Below, one piece after another: positions 65-49,503 of a stretch of DNA of 55,284 nt. Both the position numbers and the translations under genes were made by a program. The stretch comes from Patescibacteria group bacterium (GTDB lineage: Bacteria > Patescibacteriota > Microgenomatia > Levybacterales > UBA12049): NCBI GenBank assembly GCA_038063195.1, contig JBBTVO010000003.1:1-55284 (forward strand). The letters run 5' to 3'. The stretch's first letter is position 1. Each line of letters opens with the position of its first letter. Below the pieces are notes generated by a model. That model was not told the origin of the DNA and made no database searches. It saw only the letters and a list, made by a program, of their open reading frames with translations.

Positions 65-1480
65 ATGCTAAGAAAAAATTCCCCACGCGGTTTTCCTCTT
101 GCCGAACTTTCCTCAGTAACACCTCTTGACGGAAGATATAGAGAGAAAATAGAAGAACTTTCAGAGTTTACTTCAGAGTTTGGATTGATAAAAATCCGGG
201 TTGAAGTTGAAATAAAATATCTTATCGCGCTTTCCGAAGAAAAGATTGTAAGAAAAATTTCACCGAAGGAAAAAAGTTTATTACTAAATTTAATAAATAA
301 ACTCTCAATAGAAGACGCTGAAAAAGTTAAAGAAATTGAAAATGAGACACGACACGATGTAAAAGCTGTAGAAAGGTTTCTTAGGAATTTTTTGAAAAAC
401 ACAACGCTTAGGGATATTATCGAATTTATTCATTTCGGTTTGACGTCAGAGGATATAAATAATATTTCCTACAGATTAATTCTAAAAAGAGCAACTGGTA
501 GAATTATTATTCCAGTTCTTCTTGAGATTATTAATGAGCTTTGTGAAATTGCAGAAAAAAATAAGAAGGTGGTAATGCTTGCAAGAACTCATGGACAACC
601 GGCAGTCCCAACTACTCTTGGTAAAGAAATTGTAATTTTTGCCGATAGACTTAATAAGCAGTTTTTAAAACTTAAAGATCAAAATTTGACGGGAAAAATT
701 ACTGGAGCAGTAGGGAATTACAACTCGTTAAAACTTTCTTACCCCAAGACAGACTGGATAAAATTTTCTGAAAAGTTTGTCAACTCTCTCGGGCTTACTC
801 CAAATATTATTACTACGCAAATAAATCCTTACGATGATTTTGCGCAGTATTTCCAGACAATCGAGCGAATAAATAATATTCTTATAGATTTTTCACAGGA
901 TGCGTGGCGTTATATAAGCGATGGTTGGTTTACCCAAAAAGTTAAAAAGGGAGAAGTCGGGTCCTCTGCAATGCCGCAAAAAGTAAATCCAATTGATTTT
1001 GAAAACAGCGAGGGGAATCTAGGAATGGCAAATTCAATTCTTGAGTTTATGGCAAGAAAGCTTCCTGTTTCGCGACTTCAAAGAGATTTATCGGATAGTA
1101 CGGTGATAAGAAATATCGGGACTGCACTTGGGTTTAGTTTAATTGGCTACAAAAGTTTGTTGATAGGTCTATCAAGAATCACACCGAATATTGAAAAGAT
1201 TTCTGAAGATTTAAATAATGATTGGTCAATACTCGCAGAAGCGGCACAGACACTTCTTAGAAAAGAAGGAGTCACAGATCCATATTCCATGCTTCTTTCT
1301 TTGACGCGCGGAAAACATATTAAAAGTTCTGATTGGAAAAGTTTGATAAATAAACTGAAGGTTGATAAAAAAATAAAAGATGAATTAGTAAGTTTGACAC
1401 CTGAAAAATATATCGGTCTCTCCGTGGAGATTACAGAAAAAGCCATAAAAGAAATAAAGCAGGGGAAGAGTAGTGTGTAA
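65..1480 (+). CDS. purB: adenylosuccinate lyase
   Basis: 471-aa ORF with fumarate-lyase signature GSSAMPQKVNP; TTGAAT-17-TAATAT boxes at 26-54. Confidence 0.9.
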   Translation: MLRKNSPRGFPLAELSSVTPLDGRYREKIEELSEFTSEFGLIKIRVEVEIKYLIALSEEKIVRKISPKEKSLLLNLINKLSIEDAEKVKEIENETRHDVKAVERFLRNFLKNTTLRDIIEFIHFGLTSEDINNISYRLILKRATGRIIIPVLLEIINELCEIAEKNKKVVMLARTHGQPAVPTTLGKEIVIFADRLNKQFLKLKDQNLTGKITGAVGNYNSLKLSYPKTDWIKFSEKFVNSLGLTPNIITTQINPYDDFAQYFQTIERINNILIDFSQDAWRYISDGWFTQKVKKGEVGSSAMPQKVNPIDFENSEGNLGMANSILEFMARKLPVSRLQRDLSDSTVIRNIGTALGFSLIGYKSLLIGLSRITPNIEKISEDLNNDWSILAEAAQTLLRKEGVTDPYSMLLSLTRGKHIKSSDWKSLINKLKVDKKIKDELVSLTPEKYIGLSVEITEKAIKEIKQGKSSV

Positions 1481-2225: not shown

Positions 2226-3335
2226 ATGTCAAAAAATAAAAAGAAGATTACTTATTCACAATCTGGGGTGAATTATGAATCAATGGATCCTGTTAAAAAA
2301 TTGGCTCAATCTGCTGCTAAAGATACTGCTCGAAATTTGACCAAAAAAGGATTCCTAGAGGCTGAAGACTCACGGGGCGAGTCTGCTTATGTTTGGAAAC
2401 AAGGCAGTGTTTATATGGCCACGGTAATAGAAGGATTAGGCACCAAAAATTTGGTAGCAGACGAAATGAGAAAGGTTACAGGGAAAACTTACTACGATAA
2501 CATTGGACACGATGCAGTAAGCGCAATTATTAATGATCTGATTTCCGTTGGAGCGCGTCCGCTTACTATACATGCATATTGGGCAGTTGGAGATAGCTCA
2601 TGGCTTGAAGATTCGAAAAGAATGAAGGATTTGGTTAAAGGTTGGAAAAAGGCAAGTGATTTATCCGGGGCGTCTTGGGGCGGTGGAGAAACCCCAACTT
2701 ATAAAGGAATTATAAATCCAAAAACTATAGATTTGGGTGGATCGGCGGTTGGATTTATACCAAATAAAAGTCAACTCCTAACAGACAAGAGAATTAAAAT
2801 TGGAGACAGCATAATACTTCTAAAAAGTAGTGGAATCAACGTAAATGGCTTGTCCTTAGCTCGGGCGATTGCTGAAAAACTACCTAAAAAATATGCAACA
2901 AAAGTAAACGGAAAATTATATGGAGAAACACTTTTAGTTAGATCTCATATTTACGCAAAATTAATTGCAGATTTATTCGATGCCGGAATTGATATTCATT
3001 ACTTATCAAGCATCACAGGACATGGCCTTCGCAAAGTTATGAGAGGAAAGCCGAAATTTACTTACGTTATTGAAAAAATATTTAAACCCCAAGAGATTTT
3101 TGATTTCATACAAAAACACGCAAATCTTGATGATTACGAAATGTATCAGACTTACAATATGGGAATGGATTATGCGATTTTTGTACCAAAAAAAGATACT
3201 GCAAGAACTTTAAGAATTATTAAGAAAAATAAATTTCAGGGAATTGATGCTGGATATGTCGAAAAAGGTGAGAAGCAGGTGATTATAAAACCAAAAAATT
3301 TAGTTTTTAAAGGCGATACTCTAGATCTGCGTTAG
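2226..3335 (+). CDS. purM: AIR synthase family protein (phosphoribosylformylglycinamidine cyclo-ligase-like)
   Basis: EGLGTKN, INDLISVGARP and GGGETP motifs typical of the PurM/AIR synthase family; purine gene context. Confidence 0.7.
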   Translation: MSKNKKKITYSQSGVNYESMDPVKKLAQSAAKDTARNLTKKGFLEAEDSRGESAYVWKQGSVYMATVIEGLGTKNLVADEMRKVTGKTYYDNIGHDAVSAIINDLISVGARPLTIHAYWAVGDSSWLEDSKRMKDLVKGWKKASDLSGASWGGGETPTYKGIINPKTIDLGGSAVGFIPNKSQLLTDKRIKIGDSIILLKSSGINVNGLSLARAIAEKLPKKYATKVNGKLYGETLLVRSHIYAKLIADLFDAGIDIHYLSSITGHGLRKVMRGKPKFTYVIEKIFKPQEIFDFIQKHANLDDYEMYQTYNMGMDYAIFVPKKDTARTLRIIKKNKFQGIDAGYVEKGEKQVIIKPKNLVFKGDTLDLR

Positions 3336-30958: not shown

Positions 30959-30989
30959 GTTGCTCCTTAAGCGAAGCTTAAGGAGCAAC
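30959..30989. terminator. perfect 14-bp stem hairpin GTTGCTCCTTAAGC-GAA-GCTTAAGGAGCAAC between convergent genes
   Basis: Overlaps the last four codons and the stop of the giant ORF; no clean U-tract. Confidence 0.5.
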
Positions 30990-33900
30990 TTCCTGATATA
31001 TCGTTTTTATTTGCTTAATACTCTCCGGAGCGTTGAGTACGAAGTCAGGCCGTTCCTTGATAGTAAATACCGGACAAAAAGCATTGTTTGTGCAAAGAGT
31101 TCTGTTGTTTATGAATTGACCGCCGGTTTTCCCCGCATTTACAATTACGGTCCCTGCCATATTAAGTCTGAAGTCTGGGGTTACGCAGCTATCATTGTTG
31201 TTGTCTATTATGAAATCGCTATCCGCAGAATAATATCCTTCAACCTGTGTCGCGGCCGAATTCCACGCAGTACCTATGCTTTTATCTATGTGTATATCAC
31301 CCCTGACGATAAACGTGAGAGTAGAGGTTTTGGGGACAAAAATTTTAGCGGCTATGGTAAGATTTCCATCAATCAGAATTATTACCTTTGTGCTTGCGGC
31401 AAGAGTATAATCACTGCTGTTTACAATTTTGACATCACTGCCAGCAGTATATACACCGCTTGCAAGCGCCGGTAATGTACAGCTCAGCAAAGTGCACGAT
31501 AAGTTTGTAGGAGTTATCCCTGATTGCCTAACTCTTCCCAATACATAAGCATACGAGGTGGTGTAAATTCCTTTTGACGGGGCATAAATGTCTTGATATT
31601 CTGCTGAGCCGACTTTCCAATTTGCAGGAGGTGCGGATGCAGAGCCTGCAGGACCAAAATATGCAGGTGAGTCTCCGGTAAAGATTATTCCCGGTGATCC
31701 GCCAGCGCCATTAACAGAAGTAAAGGCGTCGCCGAAAGGAGCAGTGCATACGCCGGGAGCAGCAGGAGGAACTTTAGCAGTGCTTGGTATTACATTGTCA
31801 AGTCCGCTGTCAAATCTTATATCAGTTCCGCCGGATTGAAACCATGCGGATGAAGTCTTAAATCCGAAATTAAGATTTGTAATATTTCCGTCTGCGTGGC
31901 ATGATGCTCCGGCAGATGTTCCTGTTGCTCCGGGGCTACAGCTTGGCCCGACAGTTACGATGTGTGTCAGAGAAGGAGGGAAAGATACCTGATAGCCTGA
32001 AGGAGGACTGCCGAGATAAGTTAACAAATATTTCCCCGCAGGGACACTGATACTTCCGGTTCCGGGATAATATCCTCCAACTGAAGCATTAACTACGCCG
32101 CTTATAGACACAGTTTCGTTTCTGTAGAAGACACTGTAAGACCCGCTCAGGTTGGGCTCTCCGACATCGTATTGGCCATTACTGTTGGCATCAGCCACTT
32201 GCTGTCCTGAGATGGTGTAGGGTGGCGAGAACACTACAGTGACTGTAGTAGGAGCATTTAAGATAACTGTGCATGTAGTACCTGCTCCGGAGCATCCGCC
32301 GCCTGACCAGGACTCAATAAGCGATCCGGGGTCTGGAGTTGCGGTAAGAGTTATCGATGTACCCGGACCATATGACTCTGAGCAATCAGCTCCGCAAGAA
32401 ATCCCGGGAGGACTGGATACAACAGTTCCTGTACCCGGACCGGGCTTGCTAATGGTAAGTGTGTACAGAGGGATGATACCAAAGTTTACTCCATATACGT
32501 CAGCAGTAGTTACCGCCACGGTTCTGGGATTTACATAATTGAGGTCTGTACCAGTATAACTATAGACATAGCCGGCGGGCGCAGTGATTTCGATAGTGTG
32601 ACTTTGATTACCGAGAAGATAGTTGTATGTGAAATCTCCGCCGGTTAGGGTTTTGTCGGAAAATGCAGCGCCATTAAGTGACATGCTAAGAGTGCTTCCT
32701 GTATAATTTGCTTCTGCCCCGTTTTTGATTCCGTCGCCGTTACTATCTAGATAAATTGCCCCAGAGATATTGTATGTAGGCCGTAATCCTATATCCCGCC
32801 TTACCGATGCATTTGTAATATTTATGGTCGCAGGCGTTTTCCAGCCGTAACTGATAGGAGAGCTTGGTTGAATATTGGTAAGAGCAAGCCAGTTAAGAGG
32901 GAAGGTATAATTAGCGAGAGAATTAGAATAAACAATGGAATAGTTGGTGCTTGCGCTTACACTTAGACTGTAATTTCCATTTGCATCTGGTGGAGTTCTT
33001 GCTATTACGCTACTGGAACTGGGAAATTGACAAGTTGAAGTACAAAGCCAAATAGCTGATCCAACCTCGGAGCCAGGTATAAAAGGCTCTCCCGTGTCTT
33101 TCGTTCCGTTTCCATTGTAATCAACAAATACAGTGCCATATATAGCAAGGGGTGGGGGTGTTGGGGTGGGGGTTAGGCCAGACACGTTAACATCCGTATC
33201 GGTTGCTCCAGACTCACAAGTGCGTCCGTCAGACAAATCTGCAGTTCCCCATACTGCTGTTGCGCCGCTTGCTACAGCCGTGACTGCCGTGGTATAAATC
33301 GAGGTTGTATCGGAAGCGGGATTAACAGTTGCTATAGAGGTATTATATGAACCAAAACGCATCCGTGTAATTGTTGCAGATCCAAGTCCTGAAGTCACGC
33401 TAGCTGTAACTGTTCCGGCAGCTCCTCCTACAGTTAGGTTAAGTACAGGCGGCGAAGTCGTTACCGCGCATGACCCGGCAGCAGGCGTGGGAGTAGGGGC
33501 GGGGATGGCGCAGGCGCCTGTTCCGGTATTACAAACTTGTCCGCTTGGGCATCCGCATTTAACGCAGTCATTAACTGGAGGATTGTCTTTTATTTTACAA
33601 TCCAGCGGCTGACCGCCGGCTACACAAAAGCCTACGGGAGTACGAGCAGGGTCCGTGCAAGTTCCGGGAGTAGTGGGGCAGGCGGGGAAGGTGGTGATTA
33701 TATTTTCCAGAAATTTTAAAATCCACTGAGCGTCTTTGGCTGTGACATCGCTTCCAGCAGATTGAACACTAGGGGAACCTCCCGGATCGACCACATCCGC
33801 TCTTTCTATCTGAGATGTGGTAAGAGTTCCGCCTCCGATATAATCTAGTATTTTGTAGGAGTCCAGCGTAGATATCTTTCCGTCGCCGTCCACATCTCCG

Positions 33901-35162
33901 TACTGGTAAGGCGCGCCCAGAGGGTTGGTGCCTGAGCCGGTGAGAGTTGAGGGGACAGGACATGAGGAAGTTTTGGGATCATAGACTGTAACTTGCATAC
34001 GACTGCTAGCTCCGCAATCCGTCCATGGAGAAGGGATTTGGAAAGGATTGCCAGTGCACTTGCTTCCGGAGTTGCTATGTGCATTGACAACCACCCAATA
34101 AGTACCGGGAGTACTGAACGCCTTTGAAGCAGAAAATGATTGAGACGACCCAAAAAGTGTGTAGGGAGAACCTGTAAATGCAGTCCAACTCTCACCTGAG
34201 GTTGGCGACGAATACATTTCTCCCTTTGATAGACTTTGAAAATTAGGATCATTTGCTGTGCCTGTAAAGCTTACCGTTTGACCAGTTGTTGCATAAGAGC
34301 GACCTGTTATTGACGCAGTAACAGGAGGAGGGGAAAGTCCAAAATCAGAAACTTTTGTGTTGCCGCCCGCGGTGACGTTTACGCTATAGGAAGTTGGTGT
34401 GGTATTTCCCCAGCCGCCCATCGTGGGCATATCTACCCTGACAGTGTAAGTCCCTACTGGAAGCTGCCCTGACTGATAGTAAGGGTTATTTGGATCACAA
34501 CTGTTAGCCCAGATACTTATATTGCCCGGATCAGCAATAGCCTGGACACCTGCTATATTATGTAGCCCCGAAGGACAGTTTTCGGTATTTTGCATGAATG
34601 GTTCACCCAATTGCCAGACGCTATCTTTGTTCTGATCATCAAAAATATAACCCCACAAACTTCCGGTTGACGGGGGAGGGATAGAAGGGCAACTATTACC
34701 AGTTGAATCAGTTGCGGGAACGTAGTTAACTCCAGTTCCCAAGTTATTTCCCGGATTGTAAGTTACTGTATCTCTCCAAGCTAATAGACCGAGCGCAGAA
34801 TTATTTATAAATGGATCAACTATAGGATCTATGCATTGCGTCCACCACAGCATTTGAGGTGGGCCTGTAAAATATTCATTAAGTTGATATGCAACCCCTA
34901 TGTCATTTCCTGAACAAGCAGAATTATTGAATACAGGACGGGTTATTTTACGCCTATATGCACCGCTTGAGCCGTCAGAGTAAAGCCATTTATAAGCAAC
35001 CTCCCAGTCAGTTCCCGTGTTGGTTTCACAAAACGTAACCTCAGTGTCATAGAATCCAGGATATGCTTCTGCGTGACCTACATCTAAAGTAAGATAAGCA
35101 CAGAAAAATAATATTAAAATTAACGAACTTAATATCGTATTTTTTATACGCCAAATAATCAT
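30978..35162 (-). CDS. giant secreted surface/adhesin-like protein (1394 aa)
   Basis: Signal-like N-terminus. Dockerin/EF-hand-like DVDGDGKISTLDSYKILDY. Repeated SdrD-B/Cna-B-like motifs (VFVDYNGNGTKDTGEP, IYLDSNGDGIKNGAE, DANSNGQYDVGEP). InlB-B-repeat-like GTGTVVSSPPGISCGADCSESY...TLTATPDPG. G/T/S/P-rich. Confidence 0.8.
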   Translation of the reverse strand: MIIWRIKNTILSSLILILFFCAYLTLDVGHAEAYPGFYDTEVTFCETNTGTDWEVAYKWLYSDGSSGAYRRKITRPVFNNSACSGNDIGVAYQLNEYFTGPPQMLWWTQCIDPIVDPFINNSALGLLAWRDTVTYNPGNNLGTGVNYVPATDSTGNSCPSIPPPSTGSLWGYIFDDQNKDSVWQLGEPFMQNTENCPSGLHNIAGVQAIADPGNISIWANSCDPNNPYYQSGQLPVGTYTVRVDMPTMGGWGNTTPTSYSVNVTAGGNTKVSDFGLSPPPVTASITGRSYATTGQTVSFTGTANDPNFQSLSKGEMYSSPTSGESWTAFTGSPYTLFGSSQSFSASKAFSTPGTYWVVVNAHSNSGSKCTGNPFQIPSPWTDCGASSRMQVTVYDPKTSSCPVPSTLTGSGTNPLGAPYQYGDVDGDGKISTLDSYKILDYIGGGTLTTSQIERADVVDPGGSPSVQSAGSDVTAKDAQWILKFLENIITTFPACPTTPGTCTDPARTPVGFCVAGGQPLDCKIKDNPPVNDCVKCGCPSGQVCNTGTGACAIPAPTPTPAAGSCAVTTSPPVLNLTVGGAAGTVTASVTSGLGSATITRMRFGSYNTSIATVNPASDTTSIYTTAVTAVASGATAVWGTADLSDGRTCESGATDTDVNVSGLTPTPTPPPLAIYGTVFVDYNGNGTKDTGEPFIPGSEVGSAIWLCTSTCQFPSSSSVIARTPPDANGNYSLSVSASTNYSIVYSNSLANYTFPLNWLALTNIQPSSPISYGWKTPATINITNASVRRDIGLRPTYNISGAIYLDSNGDGIKNGAEANYTGSTLSMSLNGAAFSDKTLTGGDFTYNYLLGNQSHTIEITAPAGYVYSYTGTDLNYVNPRTVAVTTADVYGVNFGIIPLYTLTISKPGPGTGTVVSSPPGISCGADCSESYGPGTSITLTATPDPGSLIESWSGGGCSGAGTTCTVILNAPTTVTVVFSPPYTISGQQVADANSNGQYDVGEPNLSGSYSVFYRNETVSISGVVNASVGGYYPGTGSISVPAGKYLLTYLGSPPSGYQVSFPPSLTHIVTVGPSCSPGATGTSAGASCHADGNITNLNFGFKTSSAWFQSGGTDIRFDSGLDNVIPSTAKVPPAAPGVCTAPFGDAFTSVNGAGGSPGIIFTGDSPAYFGPAGSASAPPANWKVGSAEYQDIYAPSKGIYTTSYAYVLGRVRQSGITPTNLSCTLLSCTLPALASGVYTAGSDVKIVNSSDYTLAASTKVIILIDGNLTIAAKIFVPKTSTLTFIVRGDIHIDKSIGTAWNSAATQVEGYYSADSDFIIDNNNDSCVTPDFRLNMAGTVIVNAGKTGGQFINNRTLCTNNAFCPVFTIKERPDFVLNAPESIKQIKTIYQEVAP

Positions 35163-37370: not shown

Positions 37371-37793
37371 TTATCGGTAATCTTTTAAAGAAATTACTTG
37401 AATTCGCTTTGATTTCCCTTGATGCTTAATATTTTCAGTGACCAAAATAGCATTATATTGTTCTGCAATTGATAAAAATGAAGCATCATAATATGTAATC
37501 TTTAATGTTTGTGCTAGGCTATATGTAGTATTCGCAATGTCTTGGCTCATTGTAATAAAAGAAATGGGCAAAGAATAGAAGATTTTCATTAATGCTCCAA
37601 TATCTTCATGATCAATCTTTTTTCCAAAAAGAAGAGCATTACCAATCTCATATTTTAGAAGTTCCGGACAAAGAAGTTCAACTTGTTTTTCTCTTACATT
37701 TTCCAGGATTAGGTTCGCTTTATCAATATCATCTTCATTGTCTTGATTGAGCCATTTTATAGCAACAGAGGTGTCGATTACTAAAGAGGTCAT
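37371..37793 (-). CDS. vapC: PIN-domain toxin VapC
   Basis: MTSLVIDTSVAIKWL..., YDASFL acidic residues; start set at the internal ATG adjoining the vapB stop. Confidence 0.8.
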   Translation of the reverse strand: MTSLVIDTSVAIKWLNQDNEDDIDKANLILENVREKQVELLCPELLKYEIGNALLFGKKIDHEDIGALMKIFYSLPISFITMSQDIANTTYSLAQTLKITYYDASFLSIAEQYNAILVTENIKHQGKSKRIQVISLKDYR

Positions 37794-37794
37794 G

Positions 37795-38061
37795 TTAATG
37801 AGATAAGCGATCTTGTTGAATAAATTCTGAAGCACTTTTACTTCCTTTCCCATGAATAGATCGTGCTTTTCGTATACCTTCCCAAATCTGTTTCCAGTCA
37901 ACTTGTTTCTGATGAGGCTTGATTATGATTTCGTCAGGTTTAATCACAGAAATTGAAACTGCTGATGAAGGAGTAACCCAATTCACCAACTTACGGATTG
38001 AGTCGGGGATAGTTAATTGTCCTCTTTCTCTTATTATTGCTGTTCCTTGCGTGTTTATCAT
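37795..38061 (-). CDS. vapB: AbrB/SpoVT-type antitoxin VapB
   Basis: IRERGQLTIPDSIRKLVNW; TTGACA-17-TATTCT-6-ATG. Confidence 0.75.
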   Translation of the reverse strand: MINTQGTAIIRERGQLTIPDSIRKLVNWVTPSSAVSISVIKPDEIIIKPHQKQVDWKQIWEGIRKARSIHGKGSKSASEFIQQDRLSH

Positions 38062-39158: not shown

Positions 39159-39827
39159 TTAGTTGAGTAGTGCCTTTTTTTTTAATTTTCTTGCTTCTTC
39201 AAGCCAGAAATTTTGCCAGACTGAAGGAGCGGTTTTATGAAGCATACGTGGATAATCTTTTAGTTCTGTTACTTGCAAAAGCTGCTGACCCAACTGTAAC
39301 GGGTCAATATGTGTATCAAATTTTATTCTGGCTTTTTGAAGCAAATTATCAAACTTCCATTGTTTTTTTTGCAGGATTAAGTATAGGTCGATAAAGTCGC
39401 GACTGCGAGGGTTCTGGTAAATCGTGAATGTTTTATTTACAGCAATATCAATTAGGCTCTCGACGATTACGTGATCAACTGCATGAGGTTTTTCTATCTC
39501 CGAGAAGGGAAAGTAGGTGAATTCTGTTTTTATAACTTCGTTTTCAAAATGAAGAAAAAATAAATTACGATTATAACTTTGTTGAAAGTCTATTTTTTTT
39601 ATTTTTAATATTGGTATTAATTTCTTTAATATAATCTGAATAGTAAAAGGATCTACTTCCATTTCGCTAAAAAGATCAAGGTCTTCCGAATATCTGTGAT
39701 GTAAGTAATATTCTGAAAGAGCAGTACCGCCGGTTAAGTAGAAATGAGAGAATATATCAGTCTGTAAAAAAAGCTGTTTAAGAAGACTTGTTTGCTTCGT
39801 AGTTAAGATTGTTTTGACCATAGCCAA
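39159..39827 (-). CDS. nucleotidyltransferase AbiEii/AbiGii-family toxin-like protein
   Basis: YLTGGTALSEYYLHHRYSEDLDLFS. Confidence 0.75.
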   Translation of the reverse strand: MAMVKTILTTKQTSLLKQLFLQTDIFSHFYLTGGTALSEYYLHHRYSEDLDLFSEMEVDPFTIQIILKKLIPILKIKKIDFQQSYNRNLFFLHFENEVIKTEFTYFPFSEIEKPHAVDHVIVESLIDIAVNKTFTIYQNPRSRDFIDLYLILQKKQWKFDNLLQKARIKFDTHIDPLQLGQQLLQVTELKDYPRMLHKTAPSVWQNFWLEEARKLKKKALLN

Positions 39828-41175: not shown

Positions 41176-41499
41176 TTAAGACGCGGGCTGGATTTGTTCG
41201 AGGGTTTTAATTCTTCCTTCGTGGTCGTCGACTTGATCTTTAAGTTCTGAATATTGATGCGTTTCAAGATCTCGCTCATCTCTTCTGGTTTCCAGTTCGC
41301 TCATCACGCCGTCTAGTTTGGTGAGTATTTGATCCCGATATTTTTTCGCATTTTCATCAATTTCCTCTTTAAATCCTTCCAGTTTAAAATCAATCCCTCT
41401 TCCTAAAGATCCTAGTTCATCTTTGGTTGCCAACCTTGCTAGCCTTTTTTTTAAATACTCTTTAGTTATGGCCTCTGAGGAACTTATTTTGCTTTTCAT
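41176..41499 (-). CDS. coiled-coil small protein (paralog A)
   Basis: MKSKISSSEAITKEYLKKRLARLATKDEL...DHEGRIKTLEQIQPAS. The N-terminal part of the track ORF is read-through of the repeat. Confidence 0.5.
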   Translation of the reverse strand: MKSKISSSEAITKEYLKKRLARLATKDELGSLGRGIDFKLEGFKEEIDENAKKYRDQILTKLDGVMSELETRRDERDLETHQYSELKDQVDDHEGRIKTLEQIQPAS

Positions 41500-42415: not shown

Positions 42416-43030
42416 TTATCCTAAATTTTTCACTTCACCTAAAAACCACTTTTTTATTTCTTCCCAGTCTGTTTCGATTAGCATTTGGGGCATCTCATCC
42501 CCATCCGCTTCTTCAAAAAAAACAAGAGATTTTCGTATCATAATTTCTTTCTCTTCCAAATTACCGTACTTTTTCTGATAAAAAGAGAACATCTCTTTTA
42601 AAGAAAATTTTTGTGAAAGAAAGTAAATATCTATGAAATCCCTTTTGGTTCCCCTTGCGATTATCGTATCAAGTTTCATTGCGCAAAGATCAGGAGCAGA
42701 TGCCACTGGTAACTCCAGGAAGTATTCAAAAGCGGCAATTTGCTTATATTTATATGAAAATAGGGAAAACTTAATTCCATTTACAGTTCCAATTAGAGTC
42801 TGCCAGTCTCTTTTTATCAGCTTAAGGCTGAGGTCTTTTTTTAATTTCTCCTCCCATTGTCTTTCTGCAAACTCATAAGGCGTAAAAAAATCCAGATCTA
42901 TAGACTTTCGGTGCCCCAAATGGAGGGCAACTGCTGTTCCTCCGGCCAGATATGATTTTTCTGGTAAATTACCCGGTTTTAATTTTTCAAGAAGATTCTT
43001 TGTTTGAAGAAGTAAAATATTTTCAAACAT
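42416..43030 (-). CDS. nucleotidyltransferase AbiEii/AbiGii-family toxin-like protein (second copy)
   Basis: YLAGGTAVALHLGHRKSIDLDFFTP. Confidence 0.75.
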   Translation of the reverse strand: MFENILLLQTKNLLEKLKPGNLPEKSYLAGGTAVALHLGHRKSIDLDFFTPYEFAERQWEEKLKKDLSLKLIKRDWQTLIGTVNGIKFSLFSYKYKQIAAFEYFLELPVASAPDLCAMKLDTIIARGTKRDFIDIYFLSQKFSLKEMFSFYQKKYGNLEEKEIMIRKSLVFFEEADGDEMPQMLIETDWEEIKKWFLGEVKNLG

Positions 43031-46590: not shown

Positions 46591-47814
46591 CTATTTCAGT
46601 TTCTTAATTATTTCTTCAATGTCTAGGTTTTCTTGTTCTCGCTTTTCCATATCTTTTAAGGCAATATTGCTTCCATCAACTATTATAGAGTAGGGGATAT
46701 TTTTCCTGTCAGCGTATTTGAGCTGTTTTTCGAGCTTATCCTCTTCATTTAAATACAGTTCGCAGGGAATATTTTCATTTCTCAGTTTTTTATAAACTTC
46801 AAGAGATTTATTTTTATCGCCGGAAATTGTAACCAAAGCTTTCACAGAAAATAAGTTTTTTGGGAAAAGATCGAATTGTTCTAATGCTTCCATGAGCCTG
46901 TCAAACCCGAATGCAAAGCCAACGGCTGGAACCTGTCTGCCGGCAAACATTCCGATTAGATTGTCATACCTTCCGCCGCCTGCAACAGATCCGGCGTCAT
47001 ATCCTTCAATCTCCATTTCAAAGATCAAACCAGTATAATAATCCAGTCCTCTGGCCAGCGTTGGTAAAAAAACAATTTTTTCCTCATCTATTCCAATATT
47101 CTTAAGAATTTGAGAACAGTTTTCTATGTAAGCTGGTGGTTTTGTATTTTTGACAGACTGCAGGATGTTTGTAGCTTTTTCTTGTGTAAAACCGTTTGAG
47201 ATTAATTCTTCTAATACTTTTTCTTCACCAATTTTTTTCAGTTTGTCAATTGCCCTTGTGATTATTATTAAATCTTTTCCAGATAGTGAATTAGAGTCGG
47301 CAAGATTCATGAAGACAGAACGATCATTAATTAAAATTTTGAAATTCCTAAATCCTAGTTTATCTAGAGATTTTGTAGCTACTGCGAGAATTTCCGCATC
47401 AGAAAGGAGAGAGGACGAGCCAACTACATCAGTATCCATTTGAAGGAATTCTCTGAAGCGGCCTTTTTGTGTATTTTCCGCACGCCAAACATTTGAAATT
47501 TGATATCTCTTAAATGGCATCGGAAGCTCGTTTTGATATTGGGCGACAACCCTTGCAAGGGGAACTGTCTGGTCATAGCGGAGCGCCACTTTTCTTTTGC
47601 CGTTGTCTTCAAAACGGTACATAAGCTTATCGCCTTCATCGCCGTATTTGCCGAGCAAAACTTCTTCGTATTCAAGAGCGGGAGTTTCAAGAGGTTCAAA
47701 GCCATAGGACTCAAACACTTTTTTCAAAGTATCTATCAGCCATTGTCTTTTCTTGGCTTTTTCGGGCAGAAAATCCCGAAACCCTTTAAGCAACTTCGGT
47801 TGAACCTTAGTCAT
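46591..47814 (-). CDS. hisS: histidine--tRNA ligase
   Basis: KGFRDFLP, YRFEDNG...ALRYDQTVPLAR, FREFLQMD, GGGRYDNL. Confidence 0.9.
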   Translation of the reverse strand: MTKVQPKLLKGFRDFLPEKAKKRQWLIDTLKKVFESYGFEPLETPALEYEEVLLGKYGDEGDKLMYRFEDNGKRKVALRYDQTVPLARVVAQYQNELPMPFKRYQISNVWRAENTQKGRFREFLQMDTDVVGSSSLLSDAEILAVATKSLDKLGFRNFKILINDRSVFMNLADSNSLSGKDLIIITRAIDKLKKIGEEKVLEELISNGFTQEKATNILQSVKNTKPPAYIENCSQILKNIGIDEEKIVFLPTLARGLDYYTGLIFEMEIEGYDAGSVAGGGRYDNLIGMFAGRQVPAVGFAFGFDRLMEALEQFDLFPKNLFSVKALVTISGDKNKSLEVYKKLRNENIPCELYLNEEDKLEKQLKYADRKNIPYSIIVDGSNIALKDMEKREQENLDIEEIIKKLK

Positions 47815-47837
47815 AATATATGTATGTTATCATAAAT

Positions 47838-48245
47838 TTATTTTCCGCAATATGGACATTTTGATTCACTGCCAAATCTTTGTTCGCGCGTTATGCCTGC
47901 GGTTAATGGATCATCAAAACATGTCCATGTATTTCTGTGACAAACCGGTCCCAATGGATCGACATAAATAGCCAATATGTCATCTTCACATCCTTTTTTG
48001 ATATTATCTACGATTAATCTATTTCCAGATGTTTCTCCTTTTAACCACAATTTTTTTTCAGTTCTTGACCAAAATACTACTTCATTCCTATCTAAAGTTA
48101 GACGATAGGCTTCCGCATTCATATATCCAGTCATTAAATATTGGTTAGTTTTGGCATCAAGAATTGATGCGGGGACAATACCCCGTAGTTTTGCATAATT
48201 TAGCTCATAGAACGGTGAGCTTTTTTCTTTATTATTTTTTTCCAT
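47838..48245 (-). CDS. hisI: phosphoribosyl-AMP cyclohydrolase-like protein
   Basis: LMTGYMNAEAYRLTLDRNEVVFWSRTEKKLWLKGETSGN...DPLGPVCHRNTWTCF; SD GGAGGTGA. Confidence 0.8.
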   Translation of the reverse strand: MEKNNKEKSSPFYELNYAKLRGIVPASILDAKTNQYLMTGYMNAEAYRLTLDRNEVVFWSRTEKKLWLKGETSGNRLIVDNIKKGCEDDILAIYVDPLGPVCHRNTWTCFDDPLTAGITREQRFGSESKCPYCGK

Positions 48246-48266
48246 CTTCTTTCACCTCCTTTCCAC

Positions 48267-48290
48267 AAAAAAACCGCCTCAAAGGCGGTC
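48267..48290 (-). terminator. intrinsic terminator GACCGCCTTTGAGGCGGTTTTTTT
   Basis: 6-8 bp GC stem followed by 7 T; lies 21 nt upstream of the hisI ATG. Confidence 0.7.
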
Positions 48291-48332
48291 GACGAACACA
48301 ACAATCCCGCCTTCTTAGAAAGCGGAATGATG
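48267..48332 (-). promoter_or_regulatory. leader-peptide transcription attenuator (segments 1-4)
   Basis: Segment 1 CCGCTTTC (48325-48318), segment 2 GAAGGCGG (48314-48307), segment 3 CCGCCTT (48288-48282), segment 4 AGGCGG (48279-48274) plus T7. Pairings 1:2, 2:3 and 3:4 are all complementary. Confidence 0.6.
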
Positions 48333-48362
48333 TACGGTAATCTTAAAAGAAAGTATGCTCAT
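48315..48362 (-). CDS. candidate 15-aa leader peptide MSILSFKITVHHSAF with tandem His codons
   Basis: The ATG lies 9 nt after TATACT. CAT CAT at 48327-48332 sits 3 nt before attenuator segment 1. The stop lies in the 1:2 loop. Confidence 0.45.
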   Translation of the reverse strand: MSILSFKITVHHSAF

Positions 48363-48371
48363 ATTATGAGT

Positions 48372-48400
48372 AGTATAGCAGAGCTTACATTGATAATCAA
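48372..48400 (-). promoter_or_regulatory. promoter TTGATT-17-TATACT of the his leader transcript
   Basis: -35 at 48400-48395 (overlaps the pepP stop), -10 at 48377-48372. Confidence 0.55.
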
Positions 48401-49503
48401 ATTTCAATAAGATTTTTTGGGGAATGGGTGAGGAGACGGAAGCCTCTATTTTCTAAAACTGCCAAGTCTTCGATGCGGACGCCGCCGTAGCCGGGAATAT
48501 AAATCCCAGGCTCTATTGAGAAAACCATTCCCGGTTTTAGAATATCTTTACTTTTTGGTGAAAGACTTGGTGCTTCGTGGACTTCAATTCCAATTCCGTG
48601 TCCCAGAGAATGGGGAATTGTCGGATAACCTTGTCCGACAACATAGTTACGGGCGATATTATCAATACTAGAAGCTTTAATTGTATTATATATCGATATA
48701 TGATACAACGATTCGATTGCTTTTTGTTGGGATTCTAGAACGATATTGTAAATTTTTTTAAATTTATCATCAGCCTTTCCGAAAAAGACAGTCCGAGTCA
48801 TATCCGAACAATAGTTTTCAAATTTAACTCCAAAGTCCAACAGAACAATGTTATTAGTTATTAGTTTTTCGTTATTCGATTTATGGTGAGGCATTGAAGA
48901 GTTTTTTCCGAAAGCAACTATGGGAGGGAAAGAAATATCAGCTCCTGACTTTTTGATAAACATTTCGAGCTCACGTGCGACTTCTTTTTCTGTAACGCCT
49001 ACTTTTAGTTTCTTTAAAATAAATTCAAACGCTTTATCTCCTAACTCACATGCTCTCTCTATTTTTGAAATTTCATCTTTACTTTTTATAATTCTTAAAT
49101 TTCGCAAATCCTTCAAAGGCTTAACTCTGAAATATTTCTTCAGTTTTTTGTATTCTGCAAGGCTTATGTCAGTCTCTTCAGCTCCAATACTTTTGATTTC
49201 CGCAGATAGATTTTTGAGGATATTCTCAAAGGAATTATCTGATGAGATTTCTAGAAGTTTGAAATGAGGAATACTGGAGACCGCTTCTGAATACCTTCCA
49301 TCGGTTAAGATATATCCATAAACCCCAGGGGTTTTGTGCTTCAACCCCTGGGGTTGAGCCAAGACCAGCAGAAATGCTTCGCGCTCCAGATACGAAAACC
49401 CATTGTAATTTGTAAGATAAACAATATCAGAGACTGAGGAAATAAGTACGGCATCAAGTTTGTTCTCTGAAATAATTTCACGAACTTTCCTTAGCTTGTC
49501 CAT
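48397..49503 (-). CDS. pepP: Xaa-Pro aminopeptidase, family M24B, with in-frame palindromic insert
   Basis: DMTRT, HSLGHGIGIEVHE, GGVRIED metal-ligand motifs. Confidence 0.85.
   Translation of the reverse strand: MDKLRKVREIISENKLDAVLISSVSDIVYLTNYNGFSYLEREAFLLVLAQPQGLKHKTPGVYGYILTDGRYSEAVSSIPHFKLLEISSDNSFENILKNLSAEIKSIGAEETDISLAEYKKLKKYFRVKPLKDLRNLRIIKSKDEISKIERACELGDKAFEFILKKLKVGVTEKEVARELEMFIKKSGADISFPPIVAFGKNSSMPHHKSNNEKLITNNIVLLDFGVKFENYCSDMTRTVFFGKADDKFKKIYNIVLESQQKAIESLYHISIYNTIKASSIDNIARNYVVGQGYPTIPHSLGHGIGIEVHEAPSLSPKSKDILKPGMVFSIEPGIYIPGYGGVRIEDLAVLENRGFRLLTHSPKNLIEI
49321..49355. repeat. in-frame double palindrome in pepP: AACCCCAGGGGTT-N9-AACCCCTGGGGTT
   Basis: Perfect 13-bp inverted arms; encodes QPQGLKHKTPGV on the minus strand. 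Confidence 0.85.

Follow-up and report, generated by a model that had tools for sequence, protein, structure and literature searches.

How is hisS, the gene for histidyl-tRNA synthetase, regulated in a bacterium of the Candidate Phyla Radiation (CPR) that is probably unable to make histidine? The question is raised by contig JBBTVO010000003.1 (GCA_038063195.1), of which we analyzed a stretch of 55,284 nt, hereafter the window. Coordinates without a locus name refer to its minus strand, unless marked (+). The host is a CPR bacterium of the Microgenomates type, Levybacteria-like. In minus-strand order, an M24 (Xaa-Pro-type) peptidase gene ending at 48397 is followed by an intergenic region of 151 nt, by a hisI-like gene of the PRA-CH family (47838..48245; 135 amino acids; Pfam PF01502, E 1.8e-25) and, 23 nt after the stop codon of the latter, by hisS (46591..47814; 407 amino acids), which most likely shares a transcript with the hisI-like gene. 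Sequence, folding and comparative evidence indicates that the intergenic region very probably encodes a ribosome-mediated transcription attenuator, which would sense charged tRNA-His and control the hisI-like-hisS operon. This is the logic of the enterobacterial his and trp operons with two regulatory codons, as an initial annotation of the locus had proposed; related leaders, alternative pairings and simulated ribosome masking all support it.

Elements of the leader region

The leader region opens with a promoter-like sequence. A -35-like hexamer, TTGATT (48395..48400), overlaps the TGA stop codon of the peptidase gene (48399-48397) and is separated by 17 nt from an extended -10 element, TGC-TATACT (48372..48380, hexamer at 48377-48372), itself located 9 nt 5' of the leader ATG (48362-48360). 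The same hexamer with a 17-nt spacer is found in three related loci (L007, L008 and L015). The ATG starts an open reading frame (ORF) of 15 codons followed by TAA (48315..48362), which encodes MSILSFKITVHHSAF* and includes the tandem His codons CAT CAT as codons 11 and 12 (48327..48332). Across the window, HH is present in 6 of 509 short ATG ORFs (1.2%), and His accounts for 1.4% of the residues in window ORFs, with CAT commoner than CAC (67 versus 34). Another short ORF with HH, at 41257 (+), is also accompanied by a T run, but it is contained in a gene of the opposite strand and lacks a hairpin; we rejected it as a chance occurrence.

No Shine-Dalgarno (SD)-like sequence precedes the leader ATG in any of the ten leaders compared below, that of the window included. 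In all ten, the ATG has a TGn and a -10-like hexamer 6-9 nt upstream, a configuration (TGnTAnnnT 6-9 nt 5' of ATG) whose background is 1.6% of window ATG triplets. Because these ATGs are promoter-proximal and have no SD, the leader ORF is probably leaderless or preceded by a 5' untranslated region of 0-3 nt. The promoter-like sequence and the CAT CAT-containing ORF are present as first annotated, and the conserved arrangement is consistent with a leaderless start of this ORF.

The remainder of the leader can be divided into four segments. Segment 1, ATTCCGCTTTC (48318..48328), starts within the second His codon; its partner is segment 2, GAAGGCGGGAT (48304..48314). The resulting 1:2 hairpin (48328-48304), a putative anti-antiterminator and pause hairpin, has 11 bp and a 3-nt loop that is the TAA stop codon itself. 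Directly 3' of this hairpin lies a U/G-rich tract, TGTTGTGTTC (48294..48303), which scored as terminator-like and which we infer to be an RNA polymerase pause site. Segment 2 can alternatively form an antiterminator, in which its stretch GAAGGCGG pairs over 8 bp with the stretch CCGCCTTT (48288-48281). The latter overlaps segment 3, GACCGCCT (48283..48290), the 5' arm of a predicted terminator whose 3' arm is segment 4, AGGCGGTT (48272..48279). The complete terminator, GACCGCCT-TTG-AGGCGGTT followed by a T7 run (48290-48267; T7 at 48267..48273), is a GC-rich hairpin of 8 bp, and its T7 run is invariant in all leaders. The strong SD sequence of the hisI-like gene, GGAGGTGA (48252..48259), stands 8-15 nt beyond the U run, with the ATG at 48245. 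All three pairings can form, and the order of T7 run, SD, hisI-like gene and hisS is as initially annotated.

Evaluated energies were -13.7 kcal/mol for the 1:2 hairpin, -12.1 for the 2:3 helix, -12.2 for the 3:4 hairpin and -25.9 for 1:2 and 3:4 combined, and the intergenic region folds more stably than its shuffles (z = -2.45). The CCGCC..GGCGG-T-run terminator occurs once in the 55-kb window, and we accordingly rejected the idea of a generic repeated element. Terminator-like sites as a whole are barely enriched, with 18 found versus 14.9 expected in positions 1-20 kb of the window.

The element has no counterpart in Rfam. At gathering score, Rfam models matched nothing in the window but a tRNA, and in the loci of relatives they gave no match to the leaders; the His_leader family (RF00514) has no match at E <= 10 in 47500-49000. 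Sub-threshold matches to Hrs13, P9 and Phe_leader (17.9 bits) were dismissed as noise, the Phe_leader alignment reflecting only the shape of a hairpin plus terminator.

Leaders and T-boxes of related operons

Related loci were collected by a scan of genome contigs, which provided one locus, by a metagenome scan, which provided five, and for the most part by exact-protein look-ups of the closest HisI-like and HisS sequences. The single genome-contig relative is a Candidatus Levybacteria metagenome-assembled genome, and the HisS relatives carry Patescibacteria or Levybacteria annotations. A contig from the Hainich groundwater metagenome (L002) is near-identical to the window and was not counted as a distinct leader. 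This left ten distinct leaders (the window, L001, L003, L005, L007, L008, L010, L011, L012 and L015), from Levybacteria-like groundwater and metagenome contigs. Relative to the window, the proteins encoded downstream of them are 64-87% identical for HisI-like and 74% for HisS.

The ten leaders fall into two classes. A short class, characterized by a stop codon within the 1:2 loop, comprises the window peptide and those of L007 (MKRVSLEIVVHHSAF), L008 (MKTLSFKIVAHHSAF), L015 (MKKLSFKMVAHHSAS) and L012 (MKSGIKSVVSHHSA). In the long class, formed by L001 (MTNVNLIKAKHQHITLAGGVIFCV), L003 (MNRKNVNGNINHHTRLFLGGVIFCV), L005 (MKINKLVKNINHHSATFKGGADFCV), L010 (MKNNKTNSNHHNTRNTCGVL) and L011 (MENIKLAKIAWYHYYTTSNGGVILCA), the ORF crosses segment 2 and the U-rich tract to end in ...GGVIFCV*. 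HH or HQH is kept at codons 10-13 in nine of the ten leaders, while the remaining peptide sequence is dissimilar, and the His codons vary synonymously (CAT CAT, CAT CAC, CAT CAG CAC). Conservation of His codons in orthologous leaders, an expectation of the attenuation model, is thereby borne out.

At the nucleotide level, the GGCGG core of segment 2 is found in nine leaders and is GCGG in the tenth (L010). The ACCGCC-loop-GGCGG-U7 terminator is present in all ten leaders as well as in the partial locus L013, with a U run of U7-U8. The nucleotides GGCGGU..UUUUGUGU are kept in both classes and are translated in the long class only; that they are conserved where untranslated points to a constraint on the RNA rather than on the peptide.

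The genes that precede the leader vary: they encode the M24 peptidase, an integrase-like protein (L008), a YerC/TrpR-like protein (L003 and L010) or others. The leader always precedes hisI-like or hisS genes. L015 is a syntenic Hainich contig, and its HisS shares 74% identity with that of the window; here the leader is followed by an aspartoacylase-like gene (AstE/AspA family) and then by hisS, with no hisI-like gene. The leader thus tracks the downstream operon in spite of differing upstream genes, which argues that it is not simply the terminator of the gene upstream.

Helices 1:2, 2:3 and 3:4 form in all ten leaders, with energies of -12 to -22, -12 to -19 and -11 to -13 kcal/mol, respectively, so that the predicted alternative pairings hold across the family. 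Counted from the first base of the last His codon, segment 1 begins 1-10 nt downstream in nine of ten leaders; the exception is L007, with a folded segment-1 span that begins 2 nt upstream of this base. We modeled ribosome masking by blocking 28 nt in three positions, a footprint size that was assumed on the basis of established ribosome data. When the A site holds a His codon and folding is limited to the transcript up to segment 3, the 2:3 antiterminator forms in every leader. When the A site holds the stop codon, segment 2 of the short class is lost and the terminator is the only structure to form; a ribosome on a leader of the long class instead moves across segment 2, after which 1:2 can re-form. 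When the terminator is kept and the upstream part is dinucleotide-shuffled, the three-helix architecture recurs as a whole in 1-3% of shuffles per leader.

As MAFFT mis-registers the stems across the two leader classes, pairing was judged by folding each sequence separately, on a small number of sequences. In the long class, segment 1 and a 3' extension of segment 2 vary yet stay paired (AUCAUAC:GUGUGAU, UAGCG:UGCUG, AUUAC:GUAAU, AACAC:GUGUU).

In three sister loci, a divergent T-box stands in place of the leader (L018:126-378, L017:3699-4003 and L009:1-100, the last truncated). The T-box model RF00230 scores 30.9 bits in L018 and 17.9 and 16.1 bits in L017 and L009, all below the gathering score; in L018 the full model is aligned, with an E value of 2.6e-5. 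The HisS of L018 is 68% identical to that of the window, its upstream gene is the same peptidase and its first gene is the same aspartoacylase-like gene as in L015. In L017 and L009, the T-box precedes a histidine-racemase-like gene, a PRA-CH gene and hisS. The three T-boxes align well. They share a very short Stem I with a 7-nt loop, GUCACGA, which contains the His codon CAC, and the T-box sequence GGAUGGGACCGCGGGAGG with a UGGG bulge, which would fit a tRNA ending in CCCA. Bacterial tRNA-His has the discriminator base C73. No tRNA-His gene, whose discriminator could be compared with the UGGG bulge, was found in the fetched loci. The motif GGNTGGNACCGCG is present only in L009 and L017 among 17 loci searched, a set to which L018 did not belong. 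A T-box in the window itself was considered and rejected: RF00230 gives no match at E <= 10, and the motif GGNUGGNACCGCG is absent from all leader loci, L002 included. A His-type T-box at the syntenic position of sister loci provides independent support for regulation by tRNA-His charging, and it would appear that tRNA-His charging controls orthologous operons of this clade by way of two distinct sensors.

Mechanism and alternative explanations

The attenuation mechanism that we infer involves the transcription start, translation of the ORF, polymerase pausing, the geometry of the ribosome footprint and a response to histidine; observed directly are the leader elements, their ability to pair, their conservation and their association with hisS operons. 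Transcription would start at the leader AUG or within about 3 nt of it, and a ribosome would load on the leaderless 15-codon ORF while the polymerase completes the 1:2 hairpin and then probably makes a pause on the U/G-rich tract. When charged tRNA-His is plentiful, the ribosome would reach the UAA codon in the 1:2 loop and cover segment 2, or 1:2 would re-form behind it; segment 3 would then pair with segment 4 and transcription would stop at the U7 run, yielding a transcript of about 95 nt. If charged tRNA-His runs short, the ribosome would stall with CAU CAU in the A site, cover segment 1 and free segment 2. The latter could then capture segment 3 as it emerges, before segment 4 is made. 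With the terminator blocked, polymerase would read into the hisI-like gene and hisS.

Several observations weigh against this mechanism. In the window, the antiterminator (-12.1 kcal/mol) at most equals the terminator (-12.2 kcal/mol): the competing 2:3 structure sought by the initial annotation does exist, but has no stability edge over 3:4, so the switch must be kinetic. Likewise, in several leaders the minimum-energy fold of the full-length transcript with a His-stalled ribosome keeps the terminator, which makes the model dependent on co-transcriptional kinetics. Variation is essentially absent from the 2:3 and 3:4 stems, which hence provide no compensatory covariation; covariation, suggested at the outset as a check, is thus limited to the 1:2 stem of the long class, which varies while keeping its pairing. 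The regulatory codons number just two, and the leaderless start is deduced from promoter-like motifs only. In one leader, L011, three Tyr codons surround a single His codon (WYHYY). Its changed segment 2 (GCGUAAU; L011:1041-1169) still pairs with the Tyr-codon stretch, and the variant could represent either a shift of specificity or a decaying sensor. The syntenic relative L016 has neither leader nor T-box. Finally, the ten leaders come from a narrow clade and do not amount to ten independent observations.

An alternative would be a switch independent of translation, such as a riboswitch, a tRNA-binding element with a CAU/CAC specifier or a protein-dependent antiterminator, with CAUCAU serving as an RNA motif. 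CAUCAU shares bases with segment 1 or borders on it, so that pairing of the RNA might explain some of its conservation; a tRNA-sensing T-box is indeed in use in sister loci, and a YerC/TrpR-like gene lies just 5' of the leader in L003 and L010. We nevertheless regard such a switch as improbable. The leader loci match no Rfam family, show no T-box at E <= 10 and lack GGNTGGNACCGCG, and the element, at about 95 nt, is too short for a known T-box. Moreover, all ten leaders have a -10 box and an in-frame ATG 9-12 codons upstream with no intervening stop, the His codons vary synonymously between CAT and CAC, and the stop codon of the short class falls exactly in the 1:2 loop. These features speak for a translated ORF. 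One may then ask whether ribosome stalling on this ORF acts mainly on translation or mRNA stability, for example through occlusion of the start region by the terminator hairpin. Such an output finds an argument in L003 and L011, where the hisI-like ATG comes 2-5 nt after the U run without a clear SD (L003:2974-2977; L011:1169-1175) and the 3:4 hairpin would overlap the initiation region. Against it stand the GC-rich hairpin followed by U7-U8 in every leader, a signature of intrinsic termination, and the SD of the window, located 8-15 nt past the U run and free in predicted folds. We therefore consider a mainly translational or stability-related output quite unlikely.

More remote still is the view that the hairpins are the terminator or terminators of the M24 peptidase gene, that the HH-encoding ORF and the complementarities are coincidental and that the hisI-like gene and hisS are expressed constitutively, by read-through or from another promoter. 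Both hairpins do score as terminator-like and, in the window, lie directly 3' of the peptidase gene. A terminator of that gene, however, would not account for a promoter-like element 5' rather than 3' of the hairpins, for the conserved His codons or for a module that follows unrelated genes in L001, L003, L008, L010 and L012, always before a hisI-like/hisS operon. Neither are intrinsic terminators common in this DNA, as seen from the counts given above for positions 1-20 kb and from the single occurrence of this terminator sequence in the window. Attenuation by a translating ribosome remains by far the most probable explanation of the leader.

Known systems, associated genes and implications

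Enterobacterial hisL (RF00514) senses charged tRNA-His by ribosome stalling. The leader described here resembles it in its His-codon leader peptide, its four segments with 1:2, 2:3 and 3:4 pairings and its terminator before the first gene. It differs in having two His codons instead of the seven consecutive ones of hisL, in lacking an Rfam match and an SD, in its CPR host and in controlling hisS and an orphan hisI-like gene rather than a biosynthetic operon. E. coli trpL provides a closer parallel for the number of codons, as it also has two tandem regulatory codons and its finished ribosome likewise covers segment 2 from the stop codon. The trpL 1:2 hairpin doubles as a pause signal, a role that would be analogous to the pause proposed here, and in both systems the decision would be kinetic, with 2:3 forming before segment 4. 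The trpL leader nevertheless reads another amino acid, has an SD-dependent ORF and is unrelated in sequence.

For the leaderless start, a likeness exists in mycobacteria. Leaderless poly-Cys short ORFs reportedly attenuate cys genes in these bacteria (Canestrari et al. 2020); they are reported to have no obvious intrinsic terminator and to act on downstream translation or operon expression. They share with the present leaders a leaderless sensor made of cognate codons and differ in amino acid and phylum. T-boxes (RF00230) also read tRNA charging and control a terminator before synthetase genes, but they bind the tRNA directly, without translation, and the window element has no T-box signature.

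Attenuation of synthetase genes is established for pheST in gamma-proteobacteria and predicted for trpS and leuS in Streptomyces (PMC1262725). As in our leaders, cognate codons precede a synthetase gene in these systems; the amino acids and phyla are different, and they are not reported to be leaderless. Naville and Gautheret (2010) reported that a hisS paralogue and hisZ of bacilli are preceded by a histidine leader peptide, and emphasized that the hisS family in Firmicutes switches between T-box and leader peptide (PMC2965389). That leader, which we liken to ours by its description, also combines a short His-codon ORF with a terminator. It belongs to Firmicutes and has a stretch of His codons, whereas the genes controlled here are a true hisS and accessory genes. 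The pair formed by L015 (leader) and L018 (T-box) represents the same exchange of sensors, at syntenic positions. In view of these precedents, the initial annotation was correct that a synthetase gene lies downstream of the attenuator, but control of a synthetase in this manner is not unusual (PMC1262725, PMC2965389). Judged against the systems of these two reports, the mechanism is classical; what is new is the CPR lineage, the conserved leaderless design and the set of controlled genes.

The first gene of the operon belongs to a HisI-like subfamily that comprises 13 clusters (P0001-P0013) in a database of 5.8 billion proteins. The protein matches Pfam PRA-CH with 89 bits and PDB entry 6j2l with an E value of 7.5e-25. 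It falls below the cut-off of the NCBIfam equivalog NF000768 (102.8 versus 126 bits) and has no histidine-pathway context in the window. Its N terminus is extended, its C-terminal CPYCGK tail is invariant, and it carries G-C-E-D-D instead of D-C-D-x-D, while the Cys and His residues aligned with the CxD...CH...C positions of HisIE are retained. Among the 48 window ORFs scanned with Pfam, no other his gene was found; the hisI homologue is indeed orphaned, as first suggested. Two purine-pathway genes are located elsewhere in the window, encoding adenylosuccinate lyase (65-1480 (+)) and an AIR-synthase-related protein (2226-3335 (+)), and may bear on the substrate of the PRA-CH-like enzyme.

In relatives, the genes that share His-sensing control with hisS encode an aspartoacylase/AstE-like deacylase, a histidine-racemase-like protein (CntK_N) and a RihC-like nucleoside hydrolase (L015:1707-2459, L018:391-1137, L009:101-775, L010:1881-2513, L017:4001-4684 and L009:1398-2324). 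One may speculate that these accessory genes are a histidine-scavenging set. As a wider interpretation, which we put forward tentatively and regard as possible rather than probable, the attenuator and the T-box would mark a histidine-starvation regulon of CPR bacteria, made up of hisS, the orphan and diverged PRA-CH gene with its Cys-rich tail, the deacylase, the racemase-like gene and the nucleoside hydrolase. This regulon would serve scavenging or include new histidine-linked enzymes, the HisI-like protein would be non-biosynthetic and the leader would provide the first evidence of amino-acid sensing in the CPR by a leaderless leader ORF and coupled transcription-translation.

Other genes around the locus deserve mention. 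In two relatives, L008 (1474-2310) and L016 (1690-2454), the interval from the peptidase gene to the hisS region contains inserted tyrosine-recombinase/integrase-like genes, and the recombinase gene of L016 takes the place of leader and first gene alike; the hisS locus looks like a rearrangement hot spot. A TrpR-related YerC/YecD gene lies directly 5' of the leader in L003 (about 2800-2920) and L010 (1052-1339), where the leader ATG overlaps its end, and a regulatory link between this gene and the leader is possible. A few kilobases away in the window are two homologues of AbiEii-type nucleotidyltransferase toxins (39159-39827 and 42416-43030) and a PIN-domain gene (37371-37901). An ORF of 1394 amino acids (30978-35162), with weak matches to repeat domains (InlB B-repeat-like, SdrD B-like), probably encodes a surface protein.

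The cis-regulatory RNAs of the Candidate Phyla Radiation have, to our knowledge, hardly been explored. If the attenuator operates as proposed, these reduced and probably host-dependent bacteria would couple transcription to translation and monitor the charging of tRNA-His, and their leaderless leader ORF would extend a design that is not known to occur outside actinobacteria. The in-place swap between a leader peptide and a short-stem T-box would constitute a clean natural experiment on sensor exchange, and shared control would offer a functional handle on orphan HisI-like, aspartoacylase-like and His-racemase-like proteins in a probable auxotroph.

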